Of a DNA stretch of 64,000 bases, positions 2,861 through 41,151 are shown piece after piece. The DNA is from Kiritimatiellia bacterium (GTDB taxonomy: Bacteria; Verrucomicrobiota; Kiritimatiellia; RFP12; UBA1067): positions 531-64,530 of the forward strand of contig JAFUEM010000002.1 of assembly GCA_017463935.1 (NCBI GenBank), in the 5' to 3' direction. The position numbers and the translations under genes were made by a program. Below the pieces are notes generated by a model. That model did no database searches. It had not been told where the DNA came from and saw nothing but the letters and a program-made list of their open reading frames with translations. Within the stretch, counting starts at the first letter, position 1. The number at the start of each line of letters is the position of its first letter.

Positions 2861-2888
2861 CTTCAGACTTCGGACTTCCGACTTCCGG
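2861..2888. repeat. Tandem heptamer block (CTTCNGA x4)
   Basis: Reads cttcaga cttcgga cttccga cttccgg. It starts exactly where homology of the truncated GT2 copy to its intact paralogue ends. Confidence 0.85.
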
Positions 2889-3281
2889 TGACTCAAATGC
2901 GGAGGCGACATGCGCCAGCGTCTCGTCGCTTGCCAGCACATCGTCGGCGTTCAAGATTCCAACGACATCGCCCGTCGCCATCTTGATGCCCTTGTTGATG
3001 GCGTCGTACATGCCCCTGTCCGGCTCGCTGATCCAGCGGAAGGTACACCGCTTGTTTTGAACGCAGAGCCGCAGAGGCGCAGAGTCTTTTAAATGTGCCG
3101 AACACGTAGCAGGCTCAATCTTTGCCGCATACTCCTTTATTACATCGACCGTGCCATCGGACGAGCCGCCGTCAACGACGATGTACTCGACATCTACGCC
3201 CTTCTGCGAAAGGACGCTCTCAATCGCCGTCCCAATCGTCTCCGCGCTGTTGTAGCAAGCGGTTATAAGTGAAATCTTCAT
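2889..3281 (-). pseudogene. Family-2 glycosyltransferase, 5' fragment (truncated paralogue of 23443..24225)
   Basis: MKISLITACYNSAETIGTAIESVLSQKGVDVEYIVVDGGSSDGT... matches the intact copy up to ...TLAHVASAFES, and then homology stops. It carries a ~22-codon insertion containing CGCAGAG repeats. The C-terminal ~130 codons are missing. Confidence 0.8.
3062..3085. repeat. Tandem octamer block (CGCAGAGN x3)
   Basis: Reads cgcagagc cgcagagg cgcagagt, read through in frame as ..APLRLCV.. The same unit recurs at 22030-22062. Confidence 0.85.
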
Positions 3282-4133
3282 TTGCAAATCCTCTCTATCG
3301 CCTTTTTCAGCAACTCCACTCTCTCCGCATCAGTTCCGTCTCGGTACCCCTTCAGGCAAACCAACCGCCCACCGTATGAATTTCCATCTTCCCACGCCGG
3401 AGCACCGTCTGTGGTAATGACTCTCTTCCCGCGCTCGAGGGCTTCGGCGACGACACGTCCGAAGTTCTCAGAAAGCGTTGGTAGCACAAGGACTTCGCAC
3501 CATTGCCACACGCGTTCAAGTTCCTCGCCCTGTGCGTCAGAGACAATCCGCAACTCGACATTAGGTAGACCAGCTACGGCCTGTTCAAGATATTCAATGC
3601 CTTTTAAGGGATGCTTGCGCCCAAGATACAGCAAATGTACTGGATTGGAAATGTACTGGATTGGAAATGATAAAATGGGTCTGACTTGTTTTATCATTTT
3701 GCGGCAGGCAGAAAAAGCGCTTTAGATTTGTGAGTTCAATTTTCCGTGCCCCTGGTTCGTATTCTCTTATCCATTTTGCTTCTGCTTCGCATGTAGCAAG
3801 CAGCACATCAGCCCTTCGTAGCATACGATGTTCAAAGAATGATACAAGTTTCTTCTTCCACCCGTGATATGCTCTACGCACAGGGTCATAGCTACCAGCC
3901 GGACGAATGTACAGCTTTGCGCCAACCGCTTTCGCCTTCTTCGCCACCCGCCACAACACCGGCAGCCACGCGCCATGTATCATTACAACATCGACGCCAG
4001 CAACGATCTGGGCGTGGATATTCGTCAAGCTCGAATCATCACCCCGTGCAAGCTCTTCATTGACAAACTGCCGCGCAGTATTTGCCATCCCGTTCCAGGA
4101 CTGTAATCCTGCGCAAAAGTGGACAACTTTCAT
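3278..4133 (-). pseudogene. GT4 (group 1) glycosyltransferase, frameshifted paralogue of 24222..25112
   Basis: ORFs 3594..4133 and 3278..3697 together align end to end with the intact GT4: MKVVHFCAGLQSWNG vs MRILHICAGWQKWNG, LLYLGRKHPLKG vs LLYLGRRHPLKG, and C-terminus ..ERVELLKKAIERICK in both. The frame breaks inside the 16-nt tandem duplication at 3633-3664. Confidence 0.85.
3633..3664. repeat. 16-nt perfect tandem duplication (AAATGTACTGGATTGG x2)
   Basis: The two units read directly at 3633-3648 and 3649-3664. Removing one unit joins ..HFIISNPVH to LLYLGRKHPLKG.. in one frame. Confidence 0.9.
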
Positions 4134-4604
4134 TCTGCTGCCATATTGTACTTTCGACCGCTCAATCTCATCGAATCAAATTTACGCTTCACCCAACTCC
4201 CATCCAATACCGAAGCTATTCTGGTAAGATTGCGCCAAAAGTGTTCATGTCTAATGCCGAGCTTGCACATCAAGTGCGCTCTCTCCGCCCTATGTTCATC
4301 GCGATTTTTCCCTCCCATCGTCTTTGATTCATCATGTACGCGAAACCCCCATACATAACCGCCTAGCCCGACAAACCTCTCGCCCGCCTTCGCCCAGCGC
4401 GTCCAAAGATCAATGTCCATCACATACTTAAGCTCAGCGTCAAATCCGCCGCGCTTCTCCCAAAGCTCACGGCTGAAAAACGCACTCGGCCCTCCCGTCC
4501 AGACACTCAGATTCTTCCGAACCAACTACGCCACTTCGCATCCGTCCTGACATCCTTCACAATCCCTTGTTCGTCGATATAAACAGTATCTCCTACTACC
4601 CAAT

Positions 4605-4637
4605 TAATCCTGTCAATCCTGTTAATCCGGTCCAAAA
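4605..4637 (+). repeat. 32-nt tri-nonamer element, AATCCTGT family, copy A
   Basis: taatcctgtcaatcctgttaatccggtccaaaa versus consensus cAATCCTGTaAATCCTGTtAATCCTGTcAAAA has 3 mismatches and 1 extra base. It is read in frame as ..LDRINRIDRIN.. Confidence 0.85.
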
Positions 4638-4782
4638 CTTTCTTCAGCGCACCAGGCAGCAGAACATCATCGGCATTCAGCCAGAACAGCCACTCGCCCT
4701 TCGCCTTCTCAAACCCCTTGTTCAGCGCATCGCTCTGTCCGGCATCTGGCTCCCGAATCCATTCCACACCTCGCAAATCCAC

Positions 4783-4812
4783 CACTCCCAACTCCTCCAC
4801 TCCCAACTCCTC
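4783..4812. repeat. 15-nt perfect tandem duplication (CCACTCCCAACTCCT x2)
   Basis: Read directly and encodes EELGVEELGV. It sits at the N-terminal truncation point of the GT2 pseudogene. Confidence 0.85.
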
Positions 4813-4845
4813 CGTCCTGCACAATGATCTCCAAGCCCCTGCGCT

Positions 4846-5313
4846 TTAAGCGAATCGATAGCTTCGCCAAAGAAAGGTCTTCAGCAGCGGCAACGTTGTA
4901 TCCTTCGCATAGTCGCCAGTCGCAATAATCTTACTCGCCTTCCCCGCCTTGAACAATCTTGCCGCCTGCCAGACGCGATCGGCGCTTGTCGCCATCTCTG
5001 CATATGAACTCGTGTTCGTCTCGATGCCCATCGAACCACCCAGCAGCACTATTACGTCCGCTTCGGGGAACGACTCCACCATCGGCACCCTGCCATCCAC
5101 CAGAAACTCCTTCTCCAACGGCACGCCGACAATCCAAGTCATAATCGGCGTCATCCATTGCCACAGCCATGCGACAGTCAGCCAGCCGAGCCACTTCGCC
5201 ACGCGCTGCCGCTTCAGCCGAGCGCAAATCAACGCCCCCGCGCCGCCAATAATCGCAAGCCCGACGGGGCTCACCACACAACCTATTAATTTATGTAGTA
5301 CATATCTGCTCAA
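4846..5313 (-). pseudogene. DUF218 (YdcF/ElyC-like) protein, C-terminally truncated paralogue of 25936..26670
   Basis: TTG start. ..VLLGGS.. and RVWQAARLFKAGKA align with ..VLLGGG.. and RVWYAAKLYNAGKA of the 244-aa copy, but the ORF diverges and stops about 90 codons early. Confidence 0.55.
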
Positions 5314-5447
5314 CTCAAACTGTCACGGCAGATATTTTACCATTTCCTGATGAGTTGGAGCACCGAAAACTGAGGCGTCAAAACCATCCGCGGCACCGGC
5401 TATCACCTCTCCCCAGACTACCTCACACGCGCCCCCCTCGGCACTTG

Positions 5448-6077
5448 CTAATCTTCATGAATTCCAACAAGCCTAATTGTCATCTCCGATGGAAGTCCGT
5501 TTGTCAGCGCATTAACATCCGCGGCCTTGTCAACAGAAAGTAATGCGTCTGCAGCATTGAATCTAAACGCATCCCTCAATGAAATGACGTCAGGAATTTC
5601 CGGGCCGAACAATGCCGACCATACATTTGTGGATCTTTCAAGACCAGATGTCGGTGCAATCGGAATCGTATTCGTGGCAATGGAATAAATCTTCGCATAC
5701 TCTTCACCCAAAGCCAATGACTGCATCAGAACAAGGCGAGCCCCAAAGAACCGCCAGTCTTTTGGCCTGTTTGCATATTCGCGCTCTATAGCCCACAGCA
5801 GATTTGTCGCTTCCACACGAGCCAAAGTGTCGTGTTCCGTTTCCGCACGCTCAAGAAGCACTGCAGACTTAAGCAATCTACACTCAACCAGTTCGTCGCC
5901 ATTGGTTGTTGCCACAATGAGCGCATTGATTTGATTCATGGAGCCCATCCTCTCCAGATAATTTGTAGATGAAAAGTCATGAAGAATGCTAGTCATCTGT
6001 TCGTGATAATTGACCTCTGCAGGCAGCGCGAACACTGCGCAACAAACAGCCAATACTGATAGGAATTTAACTTTCAT
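5448..6077 (-). CDS. Secreted hypothetical protein (accessory protein of envelope module 1)
   Basis: ATG 6077 overlaps the upstream stop (ATGA). Signal peptide MKVKFLSVLAVCCAVFALPA. It shows weak similarity (NYH.., ..ATTNGDELV vs ..AANTNDLV) to 11859..12323 and 12333..12809. Confidence 0.6.
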   Translation of the reverse strand: MKVKFLSVLAVCCAVFALPAEVNYHEQMTSILHDFSSTNYLERMGSMNQINALIVATTNGDELVECRLLKSAVLLERAETEHDTLARVEATNLLWAIEREYANRPKDWRFFGARLVLMQSLALGEEYAKIYSIATNTIPIAPTSGLERSTNVWSALFGPEIPDVISLRDAFRFNAADALLSVDKAADVNALTNGLPSEMTIRLVGIHED

Positions 6078-8599: not shown

Positions 8600-8675
8600 C
8601 CATCAATCTTCTCCCTATGTCCCCTGCCCAACCCACCACGCGCAGTTCTTCCGTGTCACCCATTGAAATCACATA

Positions 8676-8717
8676 GTTATCTTCTACGGAAGGAAACGTC
8701 CTTCTGTAGAAGATAAC
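8676..8717. other. 19-bp stem hairpin (possible terminator or insulator)
   Basis: gttatcttctacggaagga-aacg-tccttctgtagaagataac has 18 Watson-Crick pairs plus one G-T and a 4-nt loop. There is no clear U-tail on either strand. It lies between the defence pair and the 841-aa gene. Confidence 0.6.
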
Positions 8718-8772
8718 CCCTTTCATCTGTGGATAAATCCACTTTCGTCGTTAGCCCCGCCAATCTGTGGAA

Positions 8773-9195
8773 TCACGACTTGTCTTCCGGCTTCAATTTC
8801 TCACATGTCTCTTCCACATTCGCATGAACAAGAGTCATGCAACGCGCAAGCACAAGTTCTGCGCCATCCGCCCGGTTGTTACAGCACTCGCATAATGGCG
8901 CTATAAACACCCGCTTATCATCTGAACCCTTTATCATCACATGACATCCTTCTATCTCAGCAAGCTTTCCATTTTTTGTCTTTCCAGTGCAACCAGCAAC
9001 CGCACAATCCCCAGCCCCAGGGGCATTCTTATCGCTTAAAGTCTCCCAATGCCTTATCCATGGACCGCAATTTGGGCATTCCCTGCTTTTCTTTGCCGTT
9101 CCATTTCGATTGATCAATACAGTCCCCGCAGGAACAAATTTCTGCGAGAAAATCTTGATTATCTCGTTAGCAACCTCATCATTTTGATTTTCCAT
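8773..9195 (-). CDS. Small Cys-rich putative zinc-binding His-Me (HNH-like) finger protein
   Basis: ATG 9195 is preceded by GGAGGT. The protein is 140 aa with 10 Cys. The pattern CPNC..CAVAGC..GCHV..(D)KRVFIAPLCECCNNR fits a zinc-stabilised beta-beta-alpha nuclease finger. There is no closer family assignment by eye. Confidence 0.45.
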   Translation of the reverse strand: MENQNDEVANEIIKIFSQKFVPAGTVLINRNGTAKKSRECPNCGPWIRHWETLSDKNAPGAGDCAVAGCTGKTKNGKLAEIEGCHVMIKGSDDKRVFIAPLCECCNNRADGAELVLARCMTLVHANVEETCEKLKPEDKS

Positions 9196-9438
9196 TTGGC
9201 ACCTCCATTTCTTGGATTATTCTTATGTTGTGACCGCACTCGCAGTCAGCGGGAAAGTTAGAAAAGAATTCCTACAAGTTTCTACAAAATCGCAGGAAAT
9301 TTGACAAGACAAGAATTGGTCTTTTATGCTTGCAATGGCAATAGTATCCTATTTGCGCCGACAATATCAATGCAACCTTGCGCTCTTTCTCAAACTCGCG
9401 CCACACGCCTGACATGAAGATTCGGTAGGTCATACAAG

Positions 9439-11787: not shown

Positions 11788-11830
11788 TTCATCACTCCTT
11801 CTTAGAGAAAAATTCCATGACCTTTCCTCA

Positions 11831-11861
11831 ATCTACACGTTCTACATGTTCTACACGGCTA
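11831..11861 (-). repeat. Tri-nonamer element, GTGTAGAAC family, solo copy
   Basis: The reverse complement tagccgtgtagaacatgtagaacgtgtagat shares TAGCCGTGTAGAAC.. with the arm at 23411-23442. It abuts and overlaps the stop codon of 11859..12323 and lies 44 nt upstream of the ATPase start. Confidence 0.85.
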
Positions 11862-12323: not shown

Positions 12324-12332
12324 GTCGTTCCC

Positions 12333-12809: not shown

Positions 12810-12841
12810 TTCCTTGTTCCTTTCTTTTCGAGTATCCATTG

Positions 12842-15658
12842 TCAATGCCCGTCCCCGACGCGCTGCGTCGTGAATCCGGGCGAGATGAAGTTGAAGTTGA
12901 AGTCGATGTCGGGCATGAATGTCGTGTGGTTGTCGGTCGGCCTGGCGTTCGGCCACAGCCGCCTTTCCTTCACGTCCGCGCCTGCCCAGACGTTCGTGGC
13001 CATTGCCTGCATCGTCTCGTCGAGGTCGGCTCCATCCGCGACGGCAGTCCCTGCATCCCAGCTCGCCGATCCGGCATCGTCGTCCCATGTGCCGTACCTG
13101 TAGCGGGCAAGCCACCGGGAGAGCGCAAACACATTGATCCTCTCCGTTTCGTATGCAACGAGAAAATTCGAGAGCTTCGCGACGCGCATGGGCACTCCGC
13201 GGAATGTCGCCACGGCACCCATGCCCGAAAGGTCGTTGACCTGGTTGTAGTGCCACACCGTCGGTGCCAAGGCGGAGTCCACTCGCCCGAGGTAGTCGCC
13301 GACGCCGTTGTCGTTGAACCATTCCTCGCCAAATGAAATGGTCTGCCGCTCAAGGTACGTGTAGTGCGAAAGCAGGTGCGCTATCGTCGCGTCCACGTCC
13401 ACCATGCCGGAGGCGAACACGCCGTCGATGCTCGCTCCTGAGAGCGGAAGCACCACGTTGCCCTCCGTCCAAGGGGAGCCGTCGCAGCGGCCCCTGAAGC
13501 GGTATACCCCTCCCTGCGTGGGATTCACGAATTGCGCCGCAAGCCCGCCCCCGTGCGAGAACGCACCGCTCATCTGCGGCTTCGCCTCGATGACCTCCCA
13601 GTCGCAGGGAAGCGACGATCCGTTCACCCCCGTCGGCGCGAGGACAAGGTTCATGTCCACGGTGAAGTTCGTGACGGAGAACCCACTGTCGCCCAGCGCC
13701 GCGACATTGCAGAACGGAACGACGAGATGTCTGTCCGAGGCGAGACTGTTCGTGATTGAAAAAGGACATGCCGTCTCGCCGTTGAACGTAGGCGGGTTGG
13801 GACTTGTCCCTGCGTATGCGCATGTCATGTCAAGATTCGTCACGCAGGCGACAGTGAGGTGCGCCATGTTAGTGTACGACTGTCCGGCGATCTCGCTCAC
13901 AAGCCGAAACTCCACGTCGTCAATCGAATCGCTCAGAACCGCGCCCTTTACCTCCATCCAGCCGCTCCCCTGCGAGAGAACAGTTATCTTGTCCGCCCCT
14001 GCCGTGCATTCAAGCGACATCGACGCCTCAGCGTTCGACGAGCCGGGCGGATCGTACACACCCGAGACGATGTGGCTGTTGCCGCCGCGCATGATCACTC
14101 GCGGCGCGGAGATGGAGACCCACGCCGAAGTGTTCGTCTCGTTCACGCGCTGGCAGCCGCACTGCGACTCCCAGTTGAACAGCCTTGAGTATCCCTCCCA
14201 GAGTGCCGTCACCTGCCACCACTGCGAATAGCCAGAGCAGTGGCAGGTGTCGCAGCAGTTCCACACATAATTGCTCGCATTGCATTCAACAGAGCAGCAG
14301 TTGCCGGTCACCGCGCCGATCACCACGCCTATATCTGGGCTGCTCGTAATGCGTCCGCCGCTCTCGCCTCCCTCAAGATCGATGTCGACCGGCCTCTCGA
14401 CCTCAAAATCGTCGCTCGGCCCAATTCCGCCACCAGCCCCCAGCAAACGCAGTCCTGGCGTCGGCAAATTTGATGGTCGAACTGTGTTCGACCTATCCAC
14501 TATCTCCGCCTCTGAGTCGCTTGCCGCTATGCCATCCACCGGCCAGCTTGCGGTCACGTGGTATCTCGCCCCCATCAGCATCGGCACTTCGCACGCCTGC
14601 CCCTCGTTGGCCAACACGACCATGTCGCCGAGGTTACTCGGCCCGTCACAGGCGATCGTCACCCTCGTCCCGTCATGTGTCGGCGCAAACGCAAGCCAGA
14701 AGTAGGCGTTTTCGTTGGCATCCGCGTTCCACACTATTTCGTATCCGTCGTCCGCATCAGGCACCGCCGACAGCACGCCCCGGCAATTCGCGTTGAGCCA
14801 GTCTAGTCCGGTTCCGAAGCAGTCGCCGTCGGATGCCGTCGGCCATTCGTCGATCAGATTGTCGAGACCGTCTCCGTCCCAGTCGTTCGGGTTGATGCGC
14901 CGGAACACCCTCAGAAAGTCGTTGCTTCTCACTGTAAAGTCGCCGTTCGCGTTCAGGGTAATCTGCGCGTTGACGGCCTCGTTCGTGTCGCCGCCCGCAA
15001 AGAACCGCTCCCACGTGACAGTTCGCGTACCTTCGCTCGCGTGCGCCCACAGGCGGCTTTCTCCTTGCATTGCAAGCGTGTCCCCCAGTTCAGCCGAAGC
15101 CATGAACTCGGAACCACGCAGCGCGTCCTGCAGTCTCCCGTCCATGAACCACCAGAATGCCGAGGTCGTCGCGTTGCTCGGCCCATAGGGAAACGCCCAG
15201 CCTGTCGCCTCTCCTCCGACGGAATCAAGATCAACGACGTGCCTTCCGAAATCAGACCGAGCACCATGCAGGTGAAGCTTTCCGATGTACACGGCGTTCG
15301 TCGGCATGGCAAAAGAATGCCCCGCTTCGTTTGTAACCGATACAAGCCGATATCCTTGCGCTATCTCTTCCGCCGTCACCGTCGGCTCCGGCTCTCCCAC
15401 CCCTGCCAAGCGTAGATTTGATAGCCGAAATATGCTCGACCTGCCGCCACCATTGCCCGGCTTCTGTGCCTCGACCGTGGCAACAACCGCCATAGCAACA
15501 AGCAGAGTCTGCACAAAACGCGGCAGAGCCCTAAGCTGCCCCCACGCCGCCTTGAGCGACCTTCTCATTGTCATTGCGGCGAGCATGCCGTAGAACAGCA
15601 GGCCCGCAGCAAGCGCGACTAAATTCCAGTTAATCTCCATCGAAATCGTTTCACCCAT
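12842..15658 (-). CDS. Giant membrane-anchored Cys-rich protein (envelope module 2), paralogue of 6074..8599 with an unrelated C-terminal half
   Basis: ATG 15658 (alternative 15640). The double hydrophobic N-terminus, shared ~370-aa region and Cys cluster (GNCCSVECN..CCDTCHCSG..SQCGCQ) match module 1. The C-terminal ~450 aa have no counterpart in the 841-aa protein and no recognisable domain. Confidence 0.7.
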   Translation of the reverse strand: MGETISMEINWNLVALAAGLLFYGMLAAMTMRRSLKAAWGQLRALPRFVQTLLVAMAVVATVEAQKPGNGGGRSSIFRLSNLRLAGVGEPEPTVTAEEIAQGYRLVSVTNEAGHSFAMPTNAVYIGKLHLHGARSDFGRHVVDLDSVGGEATGWAFPYGPSNATTSAFWWFMDGRLQDALRGSEFMASAELGDTLAMQGESRLWAHASEGTRTVTWERFFAGGDTNEAVNAQITLNANGDFTVRSNDFLRVFRRINPNDWDGDGLDNLIDEWPTASDGDCFGTGLDWLNANCRGVLSAVPDADDGYEIVWNADANENAYFWLAFAPTHDGTRVTIACDGPSNLGDMVVLANEGQACEVPMLMGARYHVTASWPVDGIAASDSEAEIVDRSNTVRPSNLPTPGLRLLGAGGGIGPSDDFEVERPVDIDLEGGESGGRITSSPDIGVVIGAVTGNCCSVECNASNYVWNCCDTCHCSGYSQWWQVTALWEGYSRLFNWESQCGCQRVNETNTSAWVSISAPRVIMRGGNSHIVSGVYDPPGSSNAEASMSLECTAGADKITVLSQGSGWMEVKGAVLSDSIDDVEFRLVSEIAGQSYTNMAHLTVACVTNLDMTCAYAGTSPNPPTFNGETACPFSITNSLASDRHLVVPFCNVAALGDSGFSVTNFTVDMNLVLAPTGVNGSSLPCDWEVIEAKPQMSGAFSHGGGLAAQFVNPTQGGVYRFRGRCDGSPWTEGNVVLPLSGASIDGVFASGMVDVDATIAHLLSHYTYLERQTISFGEEWFNDNGVGDYLGRVDSALAPTVWHYNQVNDLSGMGAVATFRGVPMRVAKLSNFLVAYETERINVFALSRWLARYRYGTWDDDAGSASWDAGTAVADGADLDETMQAMATNVWAGADVKERRLWPNARPTDNHTTFMPDIDFNFNFISPGFTTQRVGDGH
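12886..12903. repeat. Tandem hexamer block (TGAAGT x3)
   Basis: Read directly. It encodes ..DFNFNF.. nine codons before the stop of the 938-aa gene. Confidence 0.7.
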
Positions 15659-15665
15659 CTACTGC

Positions 15666-16225: not shown

Positions 16226-16244
16226 AACGCGAAAAAGGAGGCCC

Positions 16245-20746: not shown

Positions 20747-20778
20747 TTTTGACAGGATTAACAAGATTGACAGGATTA
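20747..20778 (-). repeat. 32-nt tri-nonamer element, AATCCTGT family, copy E (intergenic)
   Basis: ttttgacaggattaacaagattgacaggatta matches the arm at 24650-24681 at 29 of 32 positions. It ends 14 nt upstream of the sugar transferase start codon. Confidence 0.85.
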
Positions 20779-20784
20779 TGTTTT

Positions 20785-20865
20785 AACCACTAAATACACG
20801 AAATACACGAAAGATAAAGAAATGTTCAGATAAGGTATTTCGTGTATTTAGTGTATTTCGTGGTT
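20785..20865. repeat. 28-bp-stem inverted repeat of (N)AAATACAC nonamers with a 25-nt loop
   Basis: The left arm aaccactaaatacacgaaatacacgaaa (20785-20812) pairs with the right arm tttcgtgtatttagtgtatttcgtggtt (20838-20865) at 26 of 28 positions. The right arm encodes the last five codons (NHEIH) and the TAA of the epimerase gene. Confidence 0.85.
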
Positions 20866-21736: not shown

Positions 21737-22978
21737 TTACATCCTCGAATCAAGCGACTTGCCCTTCTCGATGTGCTGGAAGTTGGGGAGGTATTCTTTC
21801 AGAACCTCTATGACATCCGCCTTCTCTGCGCCGGGCTTCCTGAACACAGCGCGCAGGTTTGCGAAGATCGCCTCTACCTCCTCTACGGGGCGCTTCTTGG
21901 AATTTTTGACCGCGCCAAGATTGATGAAGGTCGTCTCGTCTTTGATGTCCGTATCCGTATAGAACTCCTCAAACGTCTTCTCGCCACTCGTGTCGCTGCC
22001 GAAGAACTCGCACGGGTAGCCATTTTTAACGCAGAGGCGCAGAGACGCAGAGTTCGCAGAGATTTCCCTCATGGATTCTTTAGCTTCAATGGAACTGGAG
22101 CAAACCTTGCACCCGAACCCCATGTCATTCAGCATATCCTTCACCACAGCATCGAACGGGATCATGTCCTTCTCTGGATCAAGCTTTGGATAGACGATAT
22201 CGCCACTCTCAGCCATGACGCTTGCAAACAGGCACAGCTCACCCGACTCTGTCGGGCTCACGAAGAACCTGCGAATCCCAAGCGGACAACTCAGTGGCTG
22301 CTTCTTCTGTATGCGGTTTAGCCAGCCGATGGGAAGCGATCCGTTGGAGAACGCGACATTGGCAAACCGCGCCGTCTTGATCGGAAGCCTATCGGAGTAC
22401 GCCATGATAGTCTCCTCCATCAACTTTTTCGTCGCGCCCATAACGTTTACAGGATTCGCCGCCTTATCCGTCGAGACGCAGAAGAACGCCTCAGGCGGAT
22501 TCTCCAACAGCAAATCCAACAACTTCTTCGCCATAAACACATTTGTCTCGCACATCGCCTCGATGGAGAAGACGTCACGCTCCGCCCGCACGTGCTTCCT
22601 TGCCGCGAAGTTCGCGACAATATCGAACGGCCCCTTTGCCTTGAAGAATCGGTCAAACAAGTCGCTACCAAGGTCGATAGGTTCGGTAATATACTCTTCA
22701 GGGACATTGTAGTCGCCTGCCCTCAGTTCACGCGTCAGTTCCGTCAGTGAGTTTTCATCAATGTCGACGACGAACATCGCCGCCGGCTTGAATCCGCGCA
22801 ACGCCGCCTTGATGTAGTTGCTACCGATTGTCCCAGCGCCGCCGATGACAAGCATCCGCTTGCCGTCGATTCGCCAGTGCATCTCGTCACGGCACTTCTC
22901 AAAGTCAGCCGCCAAAAGCGACTCCGCCCGCTTGGTCATGTACTTGCGGACAAATGATTCAATGTCAAAGTCGATCAT
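21737..22978 (-). CDS. CapD/PglF-like nucleotide-sugar dehydratase (polysaccharide biosynthesis protein)
   Basis: ..MLVIGGAGTIGSNYIK.., ..FFCVSTDKAANPVNVMGATKKLME.. It contains an in-frame CGCAGAG block (..SASLRLCVKNG..). Confidence 0.75.
   Translation of the reverse strand: MIDFDIESFVRKYMTKRAESLLAADFEKCRDEMHWRIDGKRMLVIGGAGTIGSNYIKAALRGFKPAAMFVVDIDENSLTELTRELRAGDYNVPEEYITEPIDLGSDLFDRFFKAKGPFDIVANFAARKHVRAERDVFSIEAMCETNVFMAKKLLDLLLENPPEAFFCVSTDKAANPVNVMGATKKLMEETIMAYSDRLPIKTARFANVAFSNGSLPIGWLNRIQKKQPLSCPLGIRRFFVSPTESGELCLFASVMAESGDIVYPKLDPEKDMIPFDAVVKDMLNDMGFGCKVCSSSIEAKESMREISANSASLRLCVKNGYPCEFFGSDTSGEKTFEEFYTDTDIKDETTFINLGAVKNSKKRPVEEVEAIFANLRAVFRKPGAEKADVIEVLKEYLPNFQHIEKGKSLDSRM
22030..22062. 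repeat. Tandem block (CGCAGAGN x4)
   Basis: Reads cgcagagg cgcagaga cgcagagtt cgcagaga, in the same orientation and with the same T-rich flanks as 3062-3085. Confidence 0.85.
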
Positions 22979-22991: not shown

Positions 22992-23442
22992 TTAACCGTG
23001 TAGAACGTGTAGAAACGTGTAGATTTATGCCGTGATGGTACGACGCTCGAATTTGTAAGAACCGAAATTTATCAGAAGTCCAACTGGTGAATGCGTTATC
23101 TTTAGATAGTTGAGAATTTGTGCGAAATGCTCAGGCGCGAGTGTCTTGACCGCTTTCAGTTCAACTATCAATCTATCATTAACAAGCATATCCACGAAGT
23201 AGTCTCCAACACAATATTCATCTTCATCAAACACTTTTAATGGCTGTTGCCGTTCGACCTTGAACCCAGCCTTTACAAGTCTGTGTTCAAGCGCAGACTC
23301 ATACACTTTTTCAAGCAAGCCGTTACCAAAGTATTCGTGTACGCCATATGCGATTTGCCCAACCTTAGAAGCAAGTTCCCTCAACTCATCAGCGCAATCC
23401 ATCTCTCTCCTTCTACACGATCTGCACGTTCTACACGGCTAA
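22992..23442 (-). mobile_element. 451-bp cassette: GxxExxY gene bounded by 32-nt terminal inverted repeats of GTGTAGAAC nonamers (candidate miniature mobile element)
   Basis: The left arm is ttaaccgtgtagaacgtgtagaaacgtgtaga (22992-23023). The reverse complement of the right arm (23411-23442) is ttagccgtgtagaacgtgcagatcgtgtagaa. The outer 22 nt match at 20 positions and the inner nonamer realigns with a 1-nt indel. The cassette fills the gap between the GT2 stop (23443) and the CapD-like start (22978). Confidence 0.55.
23025..23402 (-). CDS. GxxExxY protein (PD-(D/E)XK nuclease-like superfamily)
   Basis: The protein is 125 aa. ..VHEYFGNGLLEKVYESALEHRL.. contains the eponymous G-L-L-E-K-V-Y motif. 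..DMLVNDRLIVELKAV.. is a D..E-x-K-like core. Confidence 0.8.
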   Translation of the reverse strand: MDCADELRELASKVGQIAYGVHEYFGNGLLEKVYESALEHRLVKAGFKVERQQPLKVFDEDEYCVGDYFVDMLVNDRLIVELKAVKTLAPEHFAQILNYLKITHSPVGLLINFGSYKFERRTITA

Positions 23443-24225: not shown

Positions 24226-25112
24226 TTGCAAATCCTCTCTATCGCCTTTTTCAGCAACTCCACTCTCTCCTCATCCGTCCCGTCCCGATACCCCTTCAGA
24301 TAAATCAACCGTCCGCCATAGCCCGAATACAATCCTGTAAATCCTGTTAATCCTGTCAAAACCTCTCCCCATGCTGGTGCGCCGTCGGTGGTGATGACGC
24401 GCCTACCGCGCTCGAGAGCTTCGGCTATGACAAGCCCGAAATTGTCGGAGAGGGTCGGGAGAACGAGCACGTCGCACCAGTCCCAAATTTTTTCGAGCTC
24501 TTCGCCAAAGGCATTGGAGACAACTTTCAGTTGCGGGGTAACAGGTAACAGGGAACTGGGAACAGATGAGAGTTGTTGTACGGCGGCTTCGAGATAGTTG
24601 AGGCCCTTGAGCGGATGGCGGCGGCCAAGGTAGAGGAGGTGGAGGTCTTTTTTGACAGGATTAACAGGATTTACAGGATTGAGATTGGCGAGATTGAAGA
24701 ACCGCTTGATGTCGGTGACTTCAACAGGCGGGCAGCGGCGACCAAGATAGGCGCGAATCCAGTCGGCCTCGGCTTCGCATGTGGCAACAAGCACCTTAGC
24801 ACGGCGGAGGCAAAAGCGCTCGATGGGGCCGACAAGAGTCTTCTTCCAACCATGATAGGCCCGCCGGATTGGATCATAACACGCCTCTGGCATCCAACGG
24901 ACGTTCCGACCCCACAATGCCGCCCACCAGAGGCAGGGCAACCATCCACAATGAATCCATATCTCGTCAGCGGATCGAAGTTGGCGAATCGATGCCCACG
25001 TGCGGAATGAGACGGCGTGCCCCTGCTGCACCTGCTCACCCATAATGAGCCGAGCAATATTAGCCGCGCCATTCCACTTTTGCCAACCAGCGCAAATGTG
25101 AAGAATTCTCAT
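24222..25112 (-). CDS. GT4 (group 1) glycosyltransferase, intact, carrying an internal perfect inverted repeat
   Basis: MRILHICAGW.. The C-terminal half has ..VLVLPTLSDNFGLVIAEALERGRRVITT.. (EX7E-type). The ORF is open through both 32-nt arms and the heptamer block. Confidence 0.85.
   Translation of the reverse strand: MRILHICAGWQKWNGAANIARLIMGEQVQQGHAVSFRTWASIRQLRSADEIWIHCGWLPCLWWAALWGRNVRWMPEACYDPIRRAYHGWKKTLVGPIERFCLRRAKVLVATCEAEADWIRAYLGRRCPPVEVTDIKRFFNLANLNPVNPVNPVKKDLHLLYLGRRHPLKGLNYLEAAVQQLSSVPSSLLPVTPQLKVVSNAFGEELEKIWDWCDVLVLPTLSDNFGLVIAEALERGRRVITTDGAPAWGEVLTGLTGFTGLYSGYGGRLIYLKGYRDGTDEERVELLKKAIERICK
24330..24361 (+). repeat. 32-nt tri-nonamer element, AATCCTGT family, copy C (left arm of perfect IR)
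   Basis: caatcctgtaaatcctgttaatcctgtcaaaa, read in frame as ..LTGLTGFTGL.. Confidence 0.95.
24537..24564. repeat. Tandem heptamer block (GGTAACA GGTAACA GGGAACT GGGAACA)
   Basis: Read directly. It encodes part of ..SSVPSSLLPVTPQ.., an insertion relative to ..GLPNVE.. in the paralogue at 3278..4133. Confidence 0.8.
24650..24681 (-). repeat. 32-nt tri-nonamer element, AATCCTGT family, copy D (right arm of perfect IR)
   Basis: ttttgacaggattaacaggatttacaggattg is the exact reverse complement of 24330-24361 (32 of 32). It is read in frame as ..NPVNPVNPVK.. Confidence 0.95.
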
Positions 25113-25939
25113 TTAACACCTTTAACCACGATACTCACCAAATGCGCACATGACAAAATCGCCGCTGCTATGCCATGATAGCGGTAGCGGATAAGCCAAA
25201 GGTCATGAAGATTCCAGTAACCTGGTTGCCAAAGAAGCTTGATGCGCTGACGAAGTGATTTGCCGCGCATCTTTTCACCAAAATCATTGTGGCAGACGCC
25301 TATATACTTGGATGAACAGTAGAATGGTATATTCGCAGCCTTTAGACGTTCAGCATAATCGTAGTCTGCACGAGCATGAGAGTAATCGCCTGAAATCATG
25401 CCGACTTTCTCATATACTGCCTTTGGAACAAGAACAAAATTTCCATTGAACCAACCGTCTGCCAATTGCGGAGTACCATTTGGCACAATCAGTTCGTCCC
25501 TGTGGTTCTTGGCACCATACGAGCACTTAGTCTCTATAATATCCTCAAAACAAGCACCTATGAGGACAAGAGTTCCGTTTGCAGGTAATCGTTGGTTGTT
25601 AGTTGTTAGTAATGCATAGTCGGCGAGGATGTTTGCAATGGCATCCGACTTGAGCGCGACATCATCGTTCAACCACAAATAGAAGTCATATTCACCGCTC
25701 TTTGTTGCCGCCTCCCATGCAAGGCGCATTCCCTTGGCCCAATAGAGTCGTCCCGTCCCATTTATGACATGCACATTCGGAAAGTGTTCACGGGCCTTCA
25801 ACCCTGTCCCGTCTGGGGATGCATCATCGACAAGAAACACATCATGCTCAATTCCGTCCGCCGCCGCTGCCAATCCCCCCAATGCGCGAAGCGTTGTTTC
25901 CGCACGGTTATAGCATGTCATTAGAACCGCAATTTTCAT
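25109..25939 (-). CDS. Family-2 glycosyltransferase (rhamnosyltransferase-like)
   Basis: Internal ATG 25939 forms an ATGA overlap with the DUF218 stop. MKIAVLMTCYNRAETT..FLVDDASPDGT..WLNDDV.. Confidence 0.8.
   Translation of the reverse strand: MKIAVLMTCYNRAETTLRALGGLAAAADGIEHDVFLVDDASPDGTGLKAREHFPNVHVINGTGRLYWAKGMRLAWEAATKSGEYDFYLWLNDDVALKSDAIANILADYALLTTNNQRLPANGTLVLIGACFEDIIETKCSYGAKNHRDELIVPNGTPQLADGWFNGNFVLVPKAVYEKVGMISGDYSHARADYDYAERLKAANIPFYCSSKYIGVCHNDFGEKMRGKSLRQRIKLLWQPGYWNLHDLWLIRYRYHGIAAAILSCAHLVSIVVKGVK
25591..25611. repeat. Tandem heptamer block (GTTGGTT GTTAGTT GTTAGTA)
   Basis: Read directly and in frame (..LLTTNNQ..). The units resemble those at 41131-41151. Confidence 0.7.
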
Positions 25940-27882: not shown

Positions 27883-27886
27883 ATTA

Positions 27887-28690: not shown

Positions 28691-28706
28691 GCGAACATGC
28701 CTCCCT

Positions 28707-28838: not shown

Positions 28839-28869
28839 TCATGCTACAACCCAAGCAGTGCTGCCTCTA

Positions 28870-33340: not shown

Positions 33341-33365
33341 ACACGAATACTCAATGGCATTGCTT

Positions 33366-37756: not shown

Positions 37757-37776
37757 TTTATATAACTATGCAATGG

Positions 37777-38544: not shown

Positions 38545-39665
38545 ACTCCCTCCAGAACTTTTACTATGCGATCTACGGCCTTTCCATCACCATACGGATT
38601 CACAGCAGCAGCCATTTTAGCATATTCCTTTTCATTCATAAGAAGCAATGCAGCTTCACGCTCTATCACTTCACGTTCAGTTCCAATAAGTTTTACTGTC
38701 CCTGACGCAACAGCCTCAGGACGCTCTGTCGTGTCGCGCATCACAAGAATCGGCTTGCCAAGCGACGGCGCCTCCTCCTGAACACCACCAGAATCAGTCA
38801 GTATGAGATATGCCCGATTCATCAATGCTACAAATGGAAGATAACTTTGTGGTTCAATCAAGTGGACATTCTTGCCGCAGTGATGTCCAAGTATCCTTCC
38901 TACTGGCTCGCGCACATTCGGGTTGAGATGGACAGGATAAACAAAATGGACATCCGGGAATCTCTCGGCGAGATTGCGAATCGCCGTGCAGATATTCTCA
39001 AATCCATCGCCAAAGTTCTCTCTTCGGTGTCCGGTAACCAAGACCATGCGCACTTCGGACTGCATCAGATCTGGCGGAAGGCCATCAATGGTTGGTGGAT
39101 TCTTCCGAACCATCTCCTTCGCCATAAGCAAAGCGTCTATCACAGTGTTACCAGTCACAAAAATATTCGCATCAGGAACCCCCTCTTTGAGAAGATTCGC
39201 TTTGTTGTTCTCCGTCGGGCAGAAATGCCATTTGGCAAGGCGCGTCGTCAAAACGCGGTTTGCCTCTTCCGGCCAAGGACTTTGCATGTTCCAAGTACGA
39301 AGTCCCGCTTCAACATGAGCAACAGGGATGTGATGATAGAAAGCCGCCAACGCGCCTGCAAGCACGGTCGTAGTATCCCCCTGCACCATCACGACATCCG
39401 GTTTCTCTTCTGCAAGGTAATCATCAATAGCGGCAATCGCACGACTCGTCAATCCGCCAAGCGTTTGATTCGGGCGCATCAACGCTAAATCCTTATCTGG
39501 CGTGACTCCAAACACATCCAAGACTTGCTGCAGCATCTCTCGATGCTGGCCTGTCACGCAGACCTTGCAATCAAAGGCTGGGTCGGCCTTTAACGTCAAC
39601 ACAACTGGGCAAAGCTTTATCGCCTCTGGCCGAGTGCCGAATATAACTGCAATTTTTCGTTTCAT
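38541..39665 (-). CDS. wecB: UDP-N-acetylglucosamine 2-epimerase (non-hydrolysing)
   Basis: Internal ATG 39665 gives [21 protein letters not shown].., ..HVEAGLRT.., ..[24 protein letters not shown].. Confidence 0.9.
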
Positions 39666-41119
39666 TAGATGTCCTTCAAGCCCGACGTGACAAATGCTGC
39701 CGCATACAATGGCCACATAACATGCAAAAGCACCGTGTATCTTTCACCCACTTCGGCAACGGCAAGAATTGCGAAATTCATTCCTAACATAATCGCCGGG
39801 GCGAACAAAACAAAACTACATTTAAATGAACTTCTGTTAAAATTTGCAAAGAACATTACAGCCAACAATACGATTGCGGCAGGGAACAAAATTCCTCCCA
39901 GTCGCGCTACACAGTGTCCAATTAGCGAGACATCCCATGAGATGTCATACCCGATAGGATTCCCCCACCAAACCATTTCCTTCTTTATGAACAGCATTAC
40001 CATATCGCCAAACGACATGGATTTCCATCTGCGAGTTGTTTCTTCTCTGACATATGGCGCAATCTCTTTGGGGCAGTGCCCCACAATCCTGAATGGGACA
40101 CCAGTCGGAGATGTCAACGGCCAGTCGCAATCTGGATGGTCAACTTTATAGCGTTGCCATATCATCTGGCAATCTTCTTTATTCATTCTGCCATTATGTT
40201 CCAATGATGCGCCGAACAATCTTGGCCACAGATTGTCGTTCGAACTGAATATCGTCACACCATTGCCAGTTTTGAAATTTACAGAAACAGCGATAGCACA
40301 TACAAATGCAATACCAACAAGCATTCCCAATAATCCACATACTGTTCTGACGTGGCGTGAAAAGTAGTCCACAACAAACACTATAGGCAATACAATAAGT
40401 AACATGACACCTTCACCGCGAGACCACATTGCAGCGAAGGAAACAAGCGCGCAAGCAAAAGCGAGCACAAATGTGGAGACTCGACTCTTAACGGTACTGA
40501 CTAAAGTAGCCGCCCACAAGGCCAAAAGCGTGAAAAACACATATGTGTGCTCGGTTGCGACATTGCCGCAATGTCCGGAAAGAAACGGCGACAAGAATAT
40601 AAATGCCGCTGTAATCAAACCAGCTTTCTTATTGAACCAGCGTTTTGCCAAATCAAATGCTACGAGAGCAGAACATGCGCTCAGCAATGAAGCAAAAGCA
40701 AATGCAGCAACTAGACTATCTCCGAAAAGTTTCGCCACAAAACCAAAGAATACAACTGTCGTCCAGGATTTGGATTCAGGCCATGTCCCCCTAGCAAAAT
40801 CCTTTGCTTGACCCCACAATAGCGTATAGTCACCCGTCGGGAGCTGGTGATGCGCCCCCAGCACGCCAGGATTGATCAGAACATAGGCCAATCGCATCAC
40901 ACAACCAACTGCCAGCACAAATGCAAGTGACTTGTCAGGGTTCGCCTCCAATGTCTTATCCAGCCACTGGATGACATCATTCACCCATTGTTTCTTTCTC
41001 AGGGCAAAGAACAAACCTACAAGCACCAATTCTATCGGCAAACGGCTTGGTGCAATGGCGAACCAGAGCGATATCGCCAATCCTACAATCCCGGCAAAAC
41101 AATAAATCTTTCTATACAT
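39665..41119 (-). CDS. GT-C fold glycosyltransferase (ArnT/PMT-like, GT39/GT83-type)
   Basis: The protein is 484 aa and polytopic. The N-terminal third resembles PMT_2/ArnT family proteins (..[10 protein letters not shown]..; many TM helices). It probably uses a polyprenyl-phosphate sugar donor. Confidence 0.6.
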
Positions 41120-41130
41120 GATGAATAGGC

Positions 41131-41151
41131 GTTAGGGATTGGTTGTTAGGA
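41131..41151. repeat. Tandem heptamer block (GTTAGGG ATTGGTT GTTAGGA)
   Basis: Read directly. It spans the stop codon of the TagF-like gene (41146-41148) and most of the 26-nt gap to the next start. Confidence 0.65.

Follow-up and report, generated by a model that had tools for sequence, protein, structure and literature searches.

Micro-tandem blocks in a Kiritimatiellia genome: probable arms of small hairpin-forming repeat elements

Why does the sugar-gene island of a Kiritimatiellia bacterium carry so many short tandem blocks, and what made them? The DNA analysed here (the window) is a 64,000-nt stretch of contig JAFUEM010000002.1. An earlier note, made from the letters alone, had read the blocks as one class of small insertions or scars associated with rearrangement.

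Census of tandem blocks in the window

Tandem repeats were searched with TRF (score floor 30; periods 6-16 counted) and compared with 40 dinucleotide shuffles. Most of the blocks listed in the earlier note were found again, with coordinates exact or a few bases off (Table 1), and their excess over the shuffled controls is real in the island: 29 micro-tandems vs. 8.6 ± 2.7, and 18 vs. 1.0 ± 1.0 at TRF scores of at least 40. About one third of the weak island blocks (score 30-39) may be chance. The GC-rich flanks are not free of such blocks, contrary to the statement in the earlier note: TRF gives 11 comparable ones there, not significantly more than the 6.2 ± 2.6 of shuffled sequence. They consist of low-complexity GC-rich repeats, and none is a family array. 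Blocks within genes had been said to leave the reading frames open, and on this the ORF list and independent gene calls agree.

Table 1. Tandem blocks and associated features of the window, with positions counted from its first letter
Feature	Position	Strand	Basis
GC-rich hairpin then T run on - strand	2835..2858	-	sequence: GGCCGTCCGAAAGGGCGGCC then TTTTGTGTTTC
GAAGTCN x4.3 heptamer array (CTTCNGA on +)	2858..2888	-	TRF score 46, period 7
Leader TTTTGAA + CGCAGAGN x3, single arm	3055..3085	+	TRF 3062-3084, period 8, x2.9
Perfect 16-nt x2.3 tandem duplication AAATGTACTGGATTGG	3633..3669	none	TRF 100% matches, score 74
15-nt x2.9 block, GGAGTTG/GGGAGTG heptamers, GRGAGTK-like family	4770..4813	-	TRF
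TGAAGT x3, coding for DFNFNF	12886..12903	-	TRF period 6, x3, 100% matches
TTGACAGGA x3.2, ACAGGATTN nonamer arm with T-rich leader	20749..20777	+	TRF; adjoins hairpin element
Gene-less hairpin, leader AACCAC + CACGAAATA-type units per arm	20785..20865	none	repeat search, fold
Leader TTTTTAA + CGCAGAGN x4	22023..22062	+	TRF 22029-22062, period 8, x4.1
GxxExxY (PDDEXK_3) nuclease cassette	22992..23442	-	gene 23025-23402
AATCCTGTN x3 arm, CAAAA leader	24330..24361	+	32/32 complementary to 24650-24681
GGKAACW x4 (GGGAACN heptamer family)	24537..24565	+	TRF 24540-24565, period 7, x3.7
TTTTG leader + ACAGGATTN x3 arm (NPVNPVNPV), GT4 inter-domain linker	24650..24681	+	
GTTRGTW x3 (GTTAGKA heptamer family)	25591..25611	+	TRF period 7, x2.9, score only 33
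Claimed GTTRGTW-type x3 block	41131..41151	none	absent from TRF at score >=30

The blocks do not form the one class proposed; they are a mixture of dispersed families and three unrelated blocks, of which one encodes a conserved motif, one is a local duplication and one is not significant as a match. TGAAGT x3 at 12886 was rejected as an insertion: it is ancestral, ordinary coding sequence, and its motif aligns gap-free (D[FYW]N[FYL][NFS]F) in all of the 37 homologues compared, whose identity goes as low as about 50%. The 16-nt block at 3633 was rejected as a copy of a dispersed element; it is a plain local duplication, a member of no dispersed family, that adds 19 nt relative to the paralogue and frameshifts a decayed GT4 copy. 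In paralogue copy B the same GT4 linker site is occupied by ACAGGATT x3, in contig C281 by a CGCAGAG hairpin. Lastly, the match at 41131 (GTTAGGG ATTGGTT GTTAGGA) was rejected as a repeat, its units being too degenerate.

Slippage or small tandem duplication in place might be invoked for the entire list, the class then being a reading artefact. This is true of the 16-nt block, made of 100% identical copies of a unique sequence, and is plausible for the weak TRF hits, as chance alone predicts 8.6 in the island; TGAAGT x3 owes its periodicity solely to a conserved peptide, and the number of units does differ between copies of the arrays (2.5-4, rarely many). Slippage cannot explain 18 high-scoring arrays where 1.0 is expected, nor identical words and leaders at 24 sites of this genome and in many phyla (see below). 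For the family arrays it is refuted by the cross-phylum identity and a reversed-pattern control of zero, and it stands only for the 16-nt block, TGAAGT x3 and the weak hits. As an explanation of the class it is highly improbable.

Families, arm anatomy and distribution

Seven blocks belong to dispersed families: CGCAGAGR (two blocks), GAAGTCN, GGGAACN, GTTAGKA, a GRGAGTK-like 15-mer and the CACGAAATA hairpin. An arm consists of a family-specific leader (TTTTAA for CGCAGAGR, TTTTG for ACAGGATTN, AACCAC for CACGAAATA) followed by units of 7-9 nt, about three in number and each with one wobble (loosely constrained) base. A complete element has two inverted arms, leaders outward, around an arbitrary loop or small gene; arms measure 25-35 nt and full hairpins about 70-100 nt. 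The genome holds 24 CGCAGAGN, 20 AATCCTGTN, at least 30 GRGAGTK (33 for the family) and 6 CTTCNGA arrays. Counted as non-duplicate loci, the ACAGGATTN family has 18 and the GAAGTCN family four, including gltB site A, the latter family being found also in L050 and L105. CGCAGAGR, ACAGGATTN and GRGAGTK are the three most abundant families. The two CGCAGAGN blocks of the window (3062 and 22030) share their orientation and have T-rich flanks, as described earlier.

Pairing of the arms is pronounced: 80 of 123 inverted array pairs are spaced 0-150 nt, with leaders outward 38:3. The wobble position is purine-biased, and the wobble bases of paired arms are independent (match in 12 of 31, about 41% expected). 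The 57 hairpin loops are unrelated and almost all singletons, varying in sequence and length. In the gene-less hairpin at 20785, arms of 28 nt (TRF 20788-20812 and 20835-20862) are 93% complementary around a 25-nt loop, and the DNA fold of -21.9 kcal/mol (z = -7.6) was matched by 0 of 200 shuffles. Arms of identical sequence are present in L040 and L051; in L145, L155 and L161, PDDEXK_3 genes are flanked by arms of the related types CACGAAN and CACGGAA.

The exact 28-mer TTTAACGCAGAGNCGCAGAGNCGCAGAG, i.e. TTTAA followed by CGCAGAGN x3, is present at more than 119 loci in Verrucomicrobiota, Planctomycetota, Chloroflexota (including isolates), Acidobacteriota, Desulfobacterota, Armatimonadota and a Polaromonas. 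Among 41 relatives 15 carry the element, in a patchy manner that extends to members of one genus. The enrichment suggested in the earlier note holds for low-GC DNA, where elements are 5-6 times denser (5.3 arrays per 100 kb at <55% GC vs. 0.88 at >=62% GC, p = 1e-4), but not for the island as such, as 15 of 64 family arrays lie in DNA of at least 62% GC. Coding DNA contains 44% of family arrays vs. 78% of random positions.

The arrays could instead be functional cis-elements rather than selfish DNA, with in-gene copies as tolerated by-products; the roles named are RNase III stems or RNA stability as in 23S rRNA intervening sequences, insulators, terminators and protein binding sites. Consistent with this, the hairpins are very stable, exact words are kept across phyla, a purine-biased wobble would permit G-U pairing in RNA, and numerous copies fill gene junctions exactly, as upstream of an AAA_13 gene and of the ribosome-binding site of PDDEXK_3, or between a Bac_transf and an epimerase gene. 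Moreover, the PF05635 cargo described below recalls ORF-bearing rRNA intervening sequences. Still, the distribution is patchy within one genus, shared gltB sites show presence, absence and family replacement, loops are conserved in neither sequence nor length, and an Rfam search of the window gave zero matches. Because the leader is T-rich 5', the hairpin is followed by TTAAAA rather than by a T run, which makes it a poor intrinsic terminator. Taken together, a cis-acting function appears unlikely.

In-frame insertions and truncation points

Alignment with orthologues, the paralogue and PDB chains, the check proposed earlier, showed four blocks to be in-frame insertions specific to a lineage; at shared protein loops the families differ between related genomes. 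The CGCAGAG array at 22030 lies in a UDP-GlcNAc 4,6-dehydratase-like gene (21737-22978) and translates on the - strand as SANSASLRLCVKN, a 9-aa insertion relative to orthologues and to PDB 3pvz, which has a 9-residue gap at the exact position. Orthologues L124-L127 (74-78% identity) lack the array, and L128 carries another octamer array (TTCAGAAC x3) in this loop. Within the GT4 gene 24222-25112, the arm at 24330 belongs to a 33-nt in-frame insertion (LTGLTGFTG), and GGKAACW x4 is indeed an insertion relative to the paralogue, in which a 27-nt gap corresponds to VPSSLLPVT. The GGGAACN array is unique in this genome, is repeated x8 in the gltB gene of L185, a congener, and is found also in L016; its site holds ACAGGATT x3 in C281. 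The GTTRGTW block at 25591 encodes LLTTNNQ within a 13-17-aa lineage-specific insertion of GT2 25109-26035, a site with 4 aa (KTKS) in most homologues and different inserts in other lineages. The single arm at 3055 sits in a 66-nt insertion of a truncated GT2 (ORF 2733-3287, - strand) and is read through; paralogue copy B lacks about 66 nt here (paralogue alignment A1).

The housekeeping gene gltB, on a contig of 65% GC, contains at least five in-frame arrays, including a full CGCAGAG hairpin, which are gaps vs. PDB 7mfm. In 22 gltB orthologues, about eight sites hold differing families or nothing. At site E, for example, a CGCAGAG hairpin is found in L163 and L183, a ACAGGATT hairpin in L164 and L170, CACGA-type arrays (CACGAGC/CACGAAT) in L165 and GTTAGGA, of the GTTAGKA heptamers, in L168, while L166 and L167 are empty. 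Essential genes such as glutamate synthase take in-frame copies; the TTTTAA leader has a stop in one frame of three, and selection would remove frame-breaking copies. Neither a target-site duplication nor a shared target motif was definable.

We are highly confident that the elements are dispersed across phyla, form hairpin arms, make lineage-specific in-frame insertions and are not island-specific. Since identical elements occur in many phyla and in frame in essential genes, most of the blocks are not local rearrangement scars of the sugar-gene island; leader and units are letter-identical at the loci counted above and usually make up one hairpin arm. Rearrangement does not create the elements. 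Several of the blocks are, as read earlier, small in-frame insertions.

Two blocks do lie where decayed glycosyltransferase genes are truncated. The array at 2858 stands between a truncated GT2 fragment and the putative operon-end terminator, and paralogue homology stops about 15-25 nt to its right; its placement at the end of GT2 homology was correct to within that distance. Judged by its letters, the hairpin at 2835 looks like an intrinsic terminator that would close the island operon just after the array. The block at 4770 lies where a GT2 fragment (ORF 4507-4824) is truncated at its N-terminus, and C310 has a similar array.

Such positions bear on a model closest to the earlier note, in which broken DNA would receive its arrays from an enzyme that adds repeats from a template (a telomerase-like reverse transcriptase or, with a slipping template, a primase-polymerase), so that arrays mark past breaks, deletions or junctions. 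A leader with variable units and one degenerate base resembles telomeric repeats, the arrays at both truncation points are solo, viral contigs carry long arrays at their ends, and the addition of arms to DNA already in place would leave loops unrelated to one another, as observed. The outward inverted pairs are not predicted by it, however, most in-gene copies lie in collinear intact genes without rearrangement, arms frame small gene cassettes, and zero candidate enzymes are linked to arrays. We regard the model as improbable.

We favour the reading that most listed blocks represent arms, solitary or in pairs, of tiny hairpin-forming repeat elements with periodic arms, which is probably correct as a whole. 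The elements would be non-autonomous insertional DNA. Dispersed repeats may also seed deletions, from which arrays at the two truncation points would follow.

Gene-bearing cassettes and known systems

The PDDEXK_3 gene of the window (Pfam PF13366, E = 6.7e-35) is flanked by inverted CGTGTAGAA-type arms (22992-23023 and 23411-23442) of 22 nt and 91% complementarity. A paralogue in C140 has the identical arm type and one in C78 has GCGGAG arms; two further contigs with the cassette are identical in sequence to the window. Inverted arrays enclose 3 of 4 PDDEXK_3 genes in this genome, and 9 of 30 across the order vs. 0 of 23 shifted controls. Genes of PF05635 (IVS-type four-helix bundle) likewise lie between heptamer arrays in C206 (GRGAGTK) and L108. 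The cassettes hint, by analogy, at a nuclease-repeat partnership like Ssn/NTS or RAYT/REPIN, and mobilisation in trans by a small nuclease that would recognise its own arm type is a tentative possibility. In this 85%-complete genome, none of the three commonest families has a nuclease cassette with matching arms, and the Y1-like genes have no flanking periodic arrays. Relative G032 has 22 CGCAGAG arrays and zero PDDEXK_3 genes, and 807 kb around CGCAGAG arrays contain only 2 such genes. As two unrelated protein families lie between arms, the genes may be cargo or loop insertions and need not be the mobilising enzyme.

Cyanobacterial STRR are an apt comparison as far as resemblance goes. Their heptamers, and the small dispersed repeats (SDR), were reportedly described by Mazel in 1990 and Elhai in 2008. 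Tandem heptanucleotide arrays are dispersed in cyanobacteria, and tiny repeats insert into one another and hairpins; we know of no transposase for SDR insertion. Dispersed tandem heptamer arrays are common to both systems, whereas words and taxa differ, periods 8 and 9 are here as common as 7, and the present arms have defined leaders and frame small genes. ORF-bearing 23S rRNA intervening sequences (S23p/PF05635) hold a four-helix-bundle gene in the loop of a long inverted-end stem, as do the inverted heptamer arrays of C206 and L108 around their PF05635 genes; the present copies lie between or inside protein-coding genes rather than in rRNA, and RNase III excision is putative here.

Nuclease-repeat pairing is already published for Ssn/NTS, small GIY-YIG single-strand nucleases framed by hairpin repeats that they cut (Chenal et al. 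2025, PMC11893778). Shared with it are a small nuclease gene flanked on both sides by a short hairpin-forming repeat and many gene-less copies around the genome in several phyla. The fold here is PD-(D/E)XK, with binding and cleavage putative, arms are tandem 7-9-nt units, copies lie in frame inside genes, and at genome level the nuclease is missing from at least one relative that has arrays (G032). Rickettsia palindromic elements (reviewed in PMC10969869) are selfish palindromes inserted in frame in unrelated genes, including metabolic ones, without destroying them, as are the palindromic repeats here in unrelated protein-coding genes; they are about 100-150 bp, conserved over their whole length and confined to Rickettsia, in contrast to periodic arms in many phyla. 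MITEs are copied as whole units, unlike hairpins with unrelated loops. In REP/REPIN and RAYT (Bertels & Rainey 2011, PMC3116915, where SDR are cited), short dispersed repeats have an inverted-doublet hairpin as replicative unit. As there, one genome has several sequence flavours, single copies resemble decayed halves and clusters arise by insertion beside existing copies; REPINs are extragenic beside a Y1 (HUH) transposase, whereas the arms described here are internally periodic, enclose unrelated loops and often lie in coding frames.

Short tandem blocks in the polysaccharide island

The draft genome (2.79 Mb in 354 contigs, 62% GC, 85% complete) carries in the window (contig C222, 531–64530) an island of surface-polysaccharide genes (GT2, GT4, Polysacc_synt_2, epimerase, Bac_transf, Glyphos_transf and PMT_2) over approximately 2.7–56 kb, with nearly all genes on the - strand, 41–60% GC inside and 65–69% GC in both flanks. 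The names of homologous proteins suggest an origin among gut or rumen Kiritimatiellia. An earlier note had described ten items of short tandem blocks here, and TRF finds nine of them in place; the units at 41131–41151 are too degenerate for a TRF score, and this block is not supported. The island holds 29 micro-tandems of period 6–16 versus 8.6 ± 2.7 in dinucleotide shuffles, and 18 versus 1.0 ± 1.0 at TRF scores ≥40. Thus, the excess is real, although several of the weak micro-tandems may have arisen by chance. The statement that no such blocks occur in the GC-rich flanks did not hold, as the flanks carry 11 blocks versus 6.2 ± 2.6 in shuffled sequence; these are low-complexity GC-rich repeats. 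Over the whole genome, micro-tandems of any kind reach a higher density in high-GC DNA (22 versus 11.9 per 100 kb). The class is definable by sequence family only, not as any short tandem.

Assignment of the short tandem blocks in the window
Position	Assignment	Strand	Remark
2858–2888	GAAGTCN family	-	paralogue homology ends here; directly before terminator-like hairpin 2835–2858 on - strand
3062–3085	CGCAGAGR family, insertion		
3633–3669	perfect local duplication		
4770–4813	GRGAGTK-like heptamers	-	truncation point
12886–12903	conserved coding motif		
20785–20865	complete hairpin without gene		
22030–22062	CGCAGAGR family, insertion		
24537–24565	GGGAACN family, 27-nt insertion		
25591–25611	GTTAGKA family, inside lineage-specific insertion		
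41131–41151	claimed repeat, unsupported		

Comparison with homologues showed four of the blocks to be in-frame insertions. The CGCAGAGN × 4 array at 22030–22062, translated as SANSASLRLCVKN in a UDP-GlcNAc 4,6-dehydratase-like protein, coincides exactly with a nine-residue gap in PDB 3pvz, and four orthologues at 74–78% identity are free of it. A more distant orthologue (L128, from the related genome G056, contig C9) carries a different octamer array, TTCAGAAC × 3, plus a 16-nt duplication in the same loop; this host belongs to a different family of the same order, and the loop was colonised independently. GGKAACW × 4 appears as 27 nt extra in copy B when the two paralogous GT2–GT4 segments of the window (copies A and B) are aligned. 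The same alignment shows about 66 nt extra in copy A, containing TTTTGAA-CGCAGAGN × 3, and 33 nt extra in copy B that correspond to AATCCTGTN × 3. A third paralogue, on contig C281, has ACAGGATT × 3 at the site of the copy B GGKAACW block, and, at the position occupied by ACAGGATT × 3 in copy B and by the 16-nt duplication in copy A, a complete CGCAGAG hairpin. GTTRGTW × 3 codes for LLTTNNQ, part of a 13–17-residue segment limited to the closest homologues; the site spans four residues in most homologues and holds different inserts in other lineages. Conversely, TGAAGT × 3 was not upheld as an inserted block: it codes for DFNFNF, which aligns gap-free with D[FYW]N[FYL][NFS]F in 37/37 homologues, and the block is ancestral coding sequence.

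The blocks should not be taken as a sign of local rearrangement in this island, as had been suggested by their description as scars. The region 2733–4824 consists of decayed glycosyltransferase fragments paralogous to 23443–25112, and dispersed repeats may have seeded deletions here, which could account for the arrays at two truncation points. Contig C166 (10,850 bp) is a reverse-strand duplicate of window positions 2821–13670 (99.99% identical); its end falls 40 nt to the left of the island-border GAAGTCN array. It is an assembly or binning redundancy, perhaps at a strain-level branch point; no polymorphism relative to the window was found in C166 or in the Logan contigs L002 and L003 (identity 100% or 99.99%). 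The island also includes an AAA_13/SMC_N-type ATPase gene (9439–11787, 782 aa, 43% GC) with a TCTACACGT × 2.9 arm at 11832–11857, roughly 45 nt ahead of the gene start; the far end of the gene showed no inverted partner for this arm. Finally, a non-periodic hairpin at 32640–32727 (35-nt arms, 89% complementary, 18-nt loop, then a T run on the + strand) lies within a - strand 398-aa ORF (32144–33340), and may be either an antisense terminator or a palindromic insert of a different type.

Repeat families and hairpin architecture

Once canonicalised, the TRF units prove to recur throughout the genome, and a regex census of the resulting families returned 24 arrays of CGCAGAGN × 3–4 on 15 contigs, 20 arrays of AATCCTGTN, at least 30 of GRGAGTK and six of CTTCNGA/GAAGTCN, with arrays of TCTACACGN, GCGGAG and AAATACACN likewise present. 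Each family has its own leader, on one side only: (G)TTTTAA before CGCAGAG, TTTTG or CTAAAAC before ACAGGATT, AACCAC before CACGAAATA, TCTCAC before GCGGAG, and TTAACC or TTAGCC before GTGTAGAA. In approximately 88% of CGCAGAGN units, the variable base is a purine. Leader and units together form an arm, and arms tend to occur as inverted pairs: 80 of 123 inverted array pairs are spaced by 0–150 nt, with the leaders facing outward in a ratio of 38:3. The NAAATACAC arms at 20785–20865 are such a hairpin, with 28-nt arms that are 93% complementary and a DNA fold of -21.9 kcal/mol (z = -7.6). Hairpin loops of at least 25 nt (n = 57) are mostly singletons and form clusters no larger than three, and the two arms of a pair vary independently at their wobble bases (12/31 match).

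A role of the hairpins as intrinsic terminators was ruled out, as the T-rich leader is located 5' of the arm; the sole good terminator, at 2835–2858, is a separate hairpin. The likeness of ACAGGATT/TTGACA to a CsrA site or a -35 box was dropped because the orientation relative to genes varies. In the GT4 gene, perfect 32/32 inverted arms (24330–24361 and 24650–24681) show the rare orientation with leaders inward, and enclose exactly 288 nt (96 codons) of the C-terminal domain with the ORF intact. These arms could be a candidate substrate for recombination, i.e. inversion or gene conversion.

The proposed enrichment of blocks in low-GC, accessory DNA is retained for the family arrays (p = 1e-4); their exclusivity to such DNA is not, given the arrays in gltB at 65% GC. 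Leaving out GRGAGTK and the duplicate contig C166, the density decreases from 5.3 family arrays per 100 kb at local GC <55% to 4.0 at 55–62% and 0.88 at ≥62%, and GRGAGTK arrays follow the reverse trend. By a spanning-ORF and GC3 criterion, which gives approximate fractions, 28/64 family arrays (44%) are found in coding frames versus 78% of random positions. This depletion fits purifying selection, since the TTTTAA leader places a stop in one of three frames on either strand. In-frame copies were found in gltB, in purF of a foreign locus (L011) and in GT4, GT2 and dehydratase genes; in-gene CTCTGCG arrays are almost always read as S-A-[PS]-L-R-L-C-V.

Housekeeping genes and distribution across phyla

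The housekeeping gene gltB (glutamate synthase large subunit) is located outside the window on contig C46 (65% GC, 718–5367, - strand) and encodes 1,550 residues that match B. subtilis GltB (PDB 7mfm) with 1391 bits. Five or more arrays or hairpins are inserted into it in frame, and the array-coded segments are gaps in the 7mfm alignment: a GAAGTC hairpin, two copies of CTCTGCG × 3–4, a 21-nt × 3 repeat and the full CGCAGAG hairpin of site E, which reads as NAESQSRREVCGGESSSAPLRLCV in translation. In a comparison of 22 gltB orthologues (genus and order), some eight sites proved hypervariable and differ between congeners, and the same site can hold different repeat families. Site E carries a CGCAGAG hairpin in L163 and L183, a ACAGGATT hairpin in L164, L170 and L118, CACGA-type arrays (CACGAGC/CACGAAT) in L165, GTTAGGA heptamers in L168 and leftover single CGCAGAG units in L169, L171 and L184, and is empty in L166 and L167. 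Orthologues with filled and empty sites share 76–82% amino acid identity and are too diverged for a definition of the junctions. GGGAACN and GTTAGKA are unique in this genome and recur in gltB of congeners. PurF of L011 shows in-frame arrays of the same kind.

The exact pattern TTTAA-CGCAGAG-N-CGCAGAG-N-CGCAGAG was found in at least 119 stretches of one-genome-per-species contigs. Hosts among the matches listed comprise Kiritimatiellia, Victivallales/Lentisphaerae, Chthoniobacterales, Akkermansia, Opitutaceae, Pirellulaceae, Anaerolineae, Chloroflexaceae, isolates of Herpetosiphon and Chloroploca, Thermoanaerobaculales, Acidobacteriota, Desulfuromonadales, Desulfobacterales, Armatimonadota and one Polaromonas; cyanobacteria are absent from these cross-phylum matches. 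The distribution among 41 relatives is patchy (15 positive, 0–24 copies per genome), and the reversed pattern, used as control, gave zero in each of them. Other window families adjoin the CGCAGAG arrays in foreign genomes, for example ACAGGATT in L011, TCTACACG in L113, GAAGTC in L050 and L105 and, preceded by an identical AACCACG leader, AAATACAC in L040 and L051. A full-text literature search with the exact arrays (15–17-mers) returned no paper, and the entire window gave no Rfam match at the gathering threshold. In viral contigs from IMG/VR (L199, L220, L224 and L251) long unbroken CGCAGAGN arrays with at least five overlapping matches were observed, at or near the contig end in the first three and internal in L251. 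It should be noted that leaders in the viral scans are heterogeneous and that the ACAGGATT matches there are partly collagen-like coding repeats; in giant-virus MAGs these matches are mostly of that sort, and unrelated.

Vertical descent would not be expected to yield a 28-nt word identical in Verrucomicrobiota, Chloroflexota, Acidobacteriota, Desulfobacterota and further groups; the finding points to some agent, so far unrecognised, by which very short DNA is written or moved. Within this lineage, loops of core enzymes would repeatedly have received 8–30 added residues from such an agent, and congeners differ at eight or more gltB sites. Inserts of this kind have a bearing on how proteins evolve and genes are called, on the assembly of MAGs and on the typing of strains. 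GxxExxY/PF13366 and PF05635, both very large families listed as "function unknown", gain a possible role.

Gene cassettes and comparison with known systems

The window carries a PDDEXK_3 nuclease gene (GxxExxY, PF13366; 23025–23402) with inverted CGTGTAGAA arms on both sides. Inverted arrays surround three of the four PDDEXK_3 genes of this genome: the paralogue on C140 has CGTGTAGAA arms as in the window and that on C78 has GCGGAG arms, while the C208 copy has none. The gene is present in 89/121 genomes of the order, and among the best 30 loci nine show periodic inverted arms within 160 nt versus 0/23 in control windows shifted by 500 nt. Arm types at these loci include CACAGAG, CACGAAG, CACGGAA and ACAGGATT, and L006 has a copy with CGCAGAG arms. 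Genes of the IVS-type four-helix-bundle protein PF05635 likewise have heptamer arrays on both sides (contig C206 and L108). On C199 (2952–4036) a 279-aa ORF lies between inverted GAAGTCN arrays; its N-terminus is four-helix-bundle-like (weak PF05635 match) and its C-terminus zinc-ribbon-like (CxxC...CxxC), and it may constitute a third cargo type.

Several observations speak against a simple model in which the nuclease moves its own arms. The related genome G032 has 22 CGCAGAG arrays with PDDEXK_3 absent at E ≤ 1e-15. Many genomes have the gene and no CGCAGAG arrays; as arm types vary among nuclease copies, co-occurrence is to be judged family by family. In tblastn searches, the four PDDEXK_3 proteins hit two genes only in 807 kb around CGCAGAG arrays, so that most arrays are not tied to a nuclease by proximity. 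The unrelated loops, the independent wobble bases and Y1-like genes without arrays argue against the model as well. For Y1 (HUH) transposases (PF01797) the genome gave three weak matches, whose flanks are empty or contain GC-rich palindromes; periodic arrays are missing from them. Y1-like genes at C78:48771–49034 and C100:74–250 are possibly RAYT-like, with a PDHIHFF motif. The C78 gene is followed by GC-rich palindromic repeats of the GGGAGGGCCGGGCGCTGTCCC type, which also occur beside some CGCAGAG arrays; this suggests that the genome has, in addition, a REP-like system of a separate kind.

In summary, the families are dispersed, differ between lineages by gain and loss, form hairpins, have passed a filter for open frames and bracket small gene cassettes. 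The arrays would be selfish, insertional DNA, and a small nuclease might maintain them by acting on the arm type that belongs to it, in parallel to Ssn/NTS (PMC11893778) and RAYT/REPIN (PMC3116915). That arms, gene-less hairpins and GxxExxY/IVS-type cassettes form one cross-phylum system, whose small PD-(D/E)XK nuclease recognises hairpins of its own 7–9-nt word and spreads or maintains them, is a speculative proposal that we consider rather improbable. If true, it would be a third nuclease–repeat partnership beside the two named, and gene-less arms would settle in frame even in essential genes. Surface loops of GltB, PurF and glycosyltransferases would then be fast-evolving insertion hot spots, and inverted repeats would be supplied for intragenic switching in surface-polysaccharide genes.

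Among known repeats, the STRR sequences of heterocystous cyanobacteria have consensus words such as CCCCAGT. The likeness to STRR noted earlier stands for the dispersed heptamer architecture (GAAGTCN, GRGAGTK, GGGAACN, GTTAGKA) and not for the words, as no frequent unit matches; octamers (CGCAGAGR) and nonamers (ACAGGATTN, CGTGTAGAA and CACGAAATA) share this architecture here, and the host is a Kiritimatiellia MAG. The terminal inverted repeats, with leaders outward, recall MITEs; the lack of a conserved interior argues against a classical MITE. As in REPIN/RAYT, inverted doublets yield hairpins, but the arrays are not confined to extragenic DNA and no Y1 (HUH) gene is flanked by them. Rickettsia palindromic elements (PMC10969869) also sit in frame in conserved genes, as at gltB site E, but the elements described here have periodic arms and are much shorter than those (~100–150 bp). 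As in Ssn/NTS, a dispersed hairpin repeat flanks a small nuclease gene, the cargo here being PF13366 (PD-(D/E)XK fold) or PF05635 instead of the GIY-YIG Ssn family.
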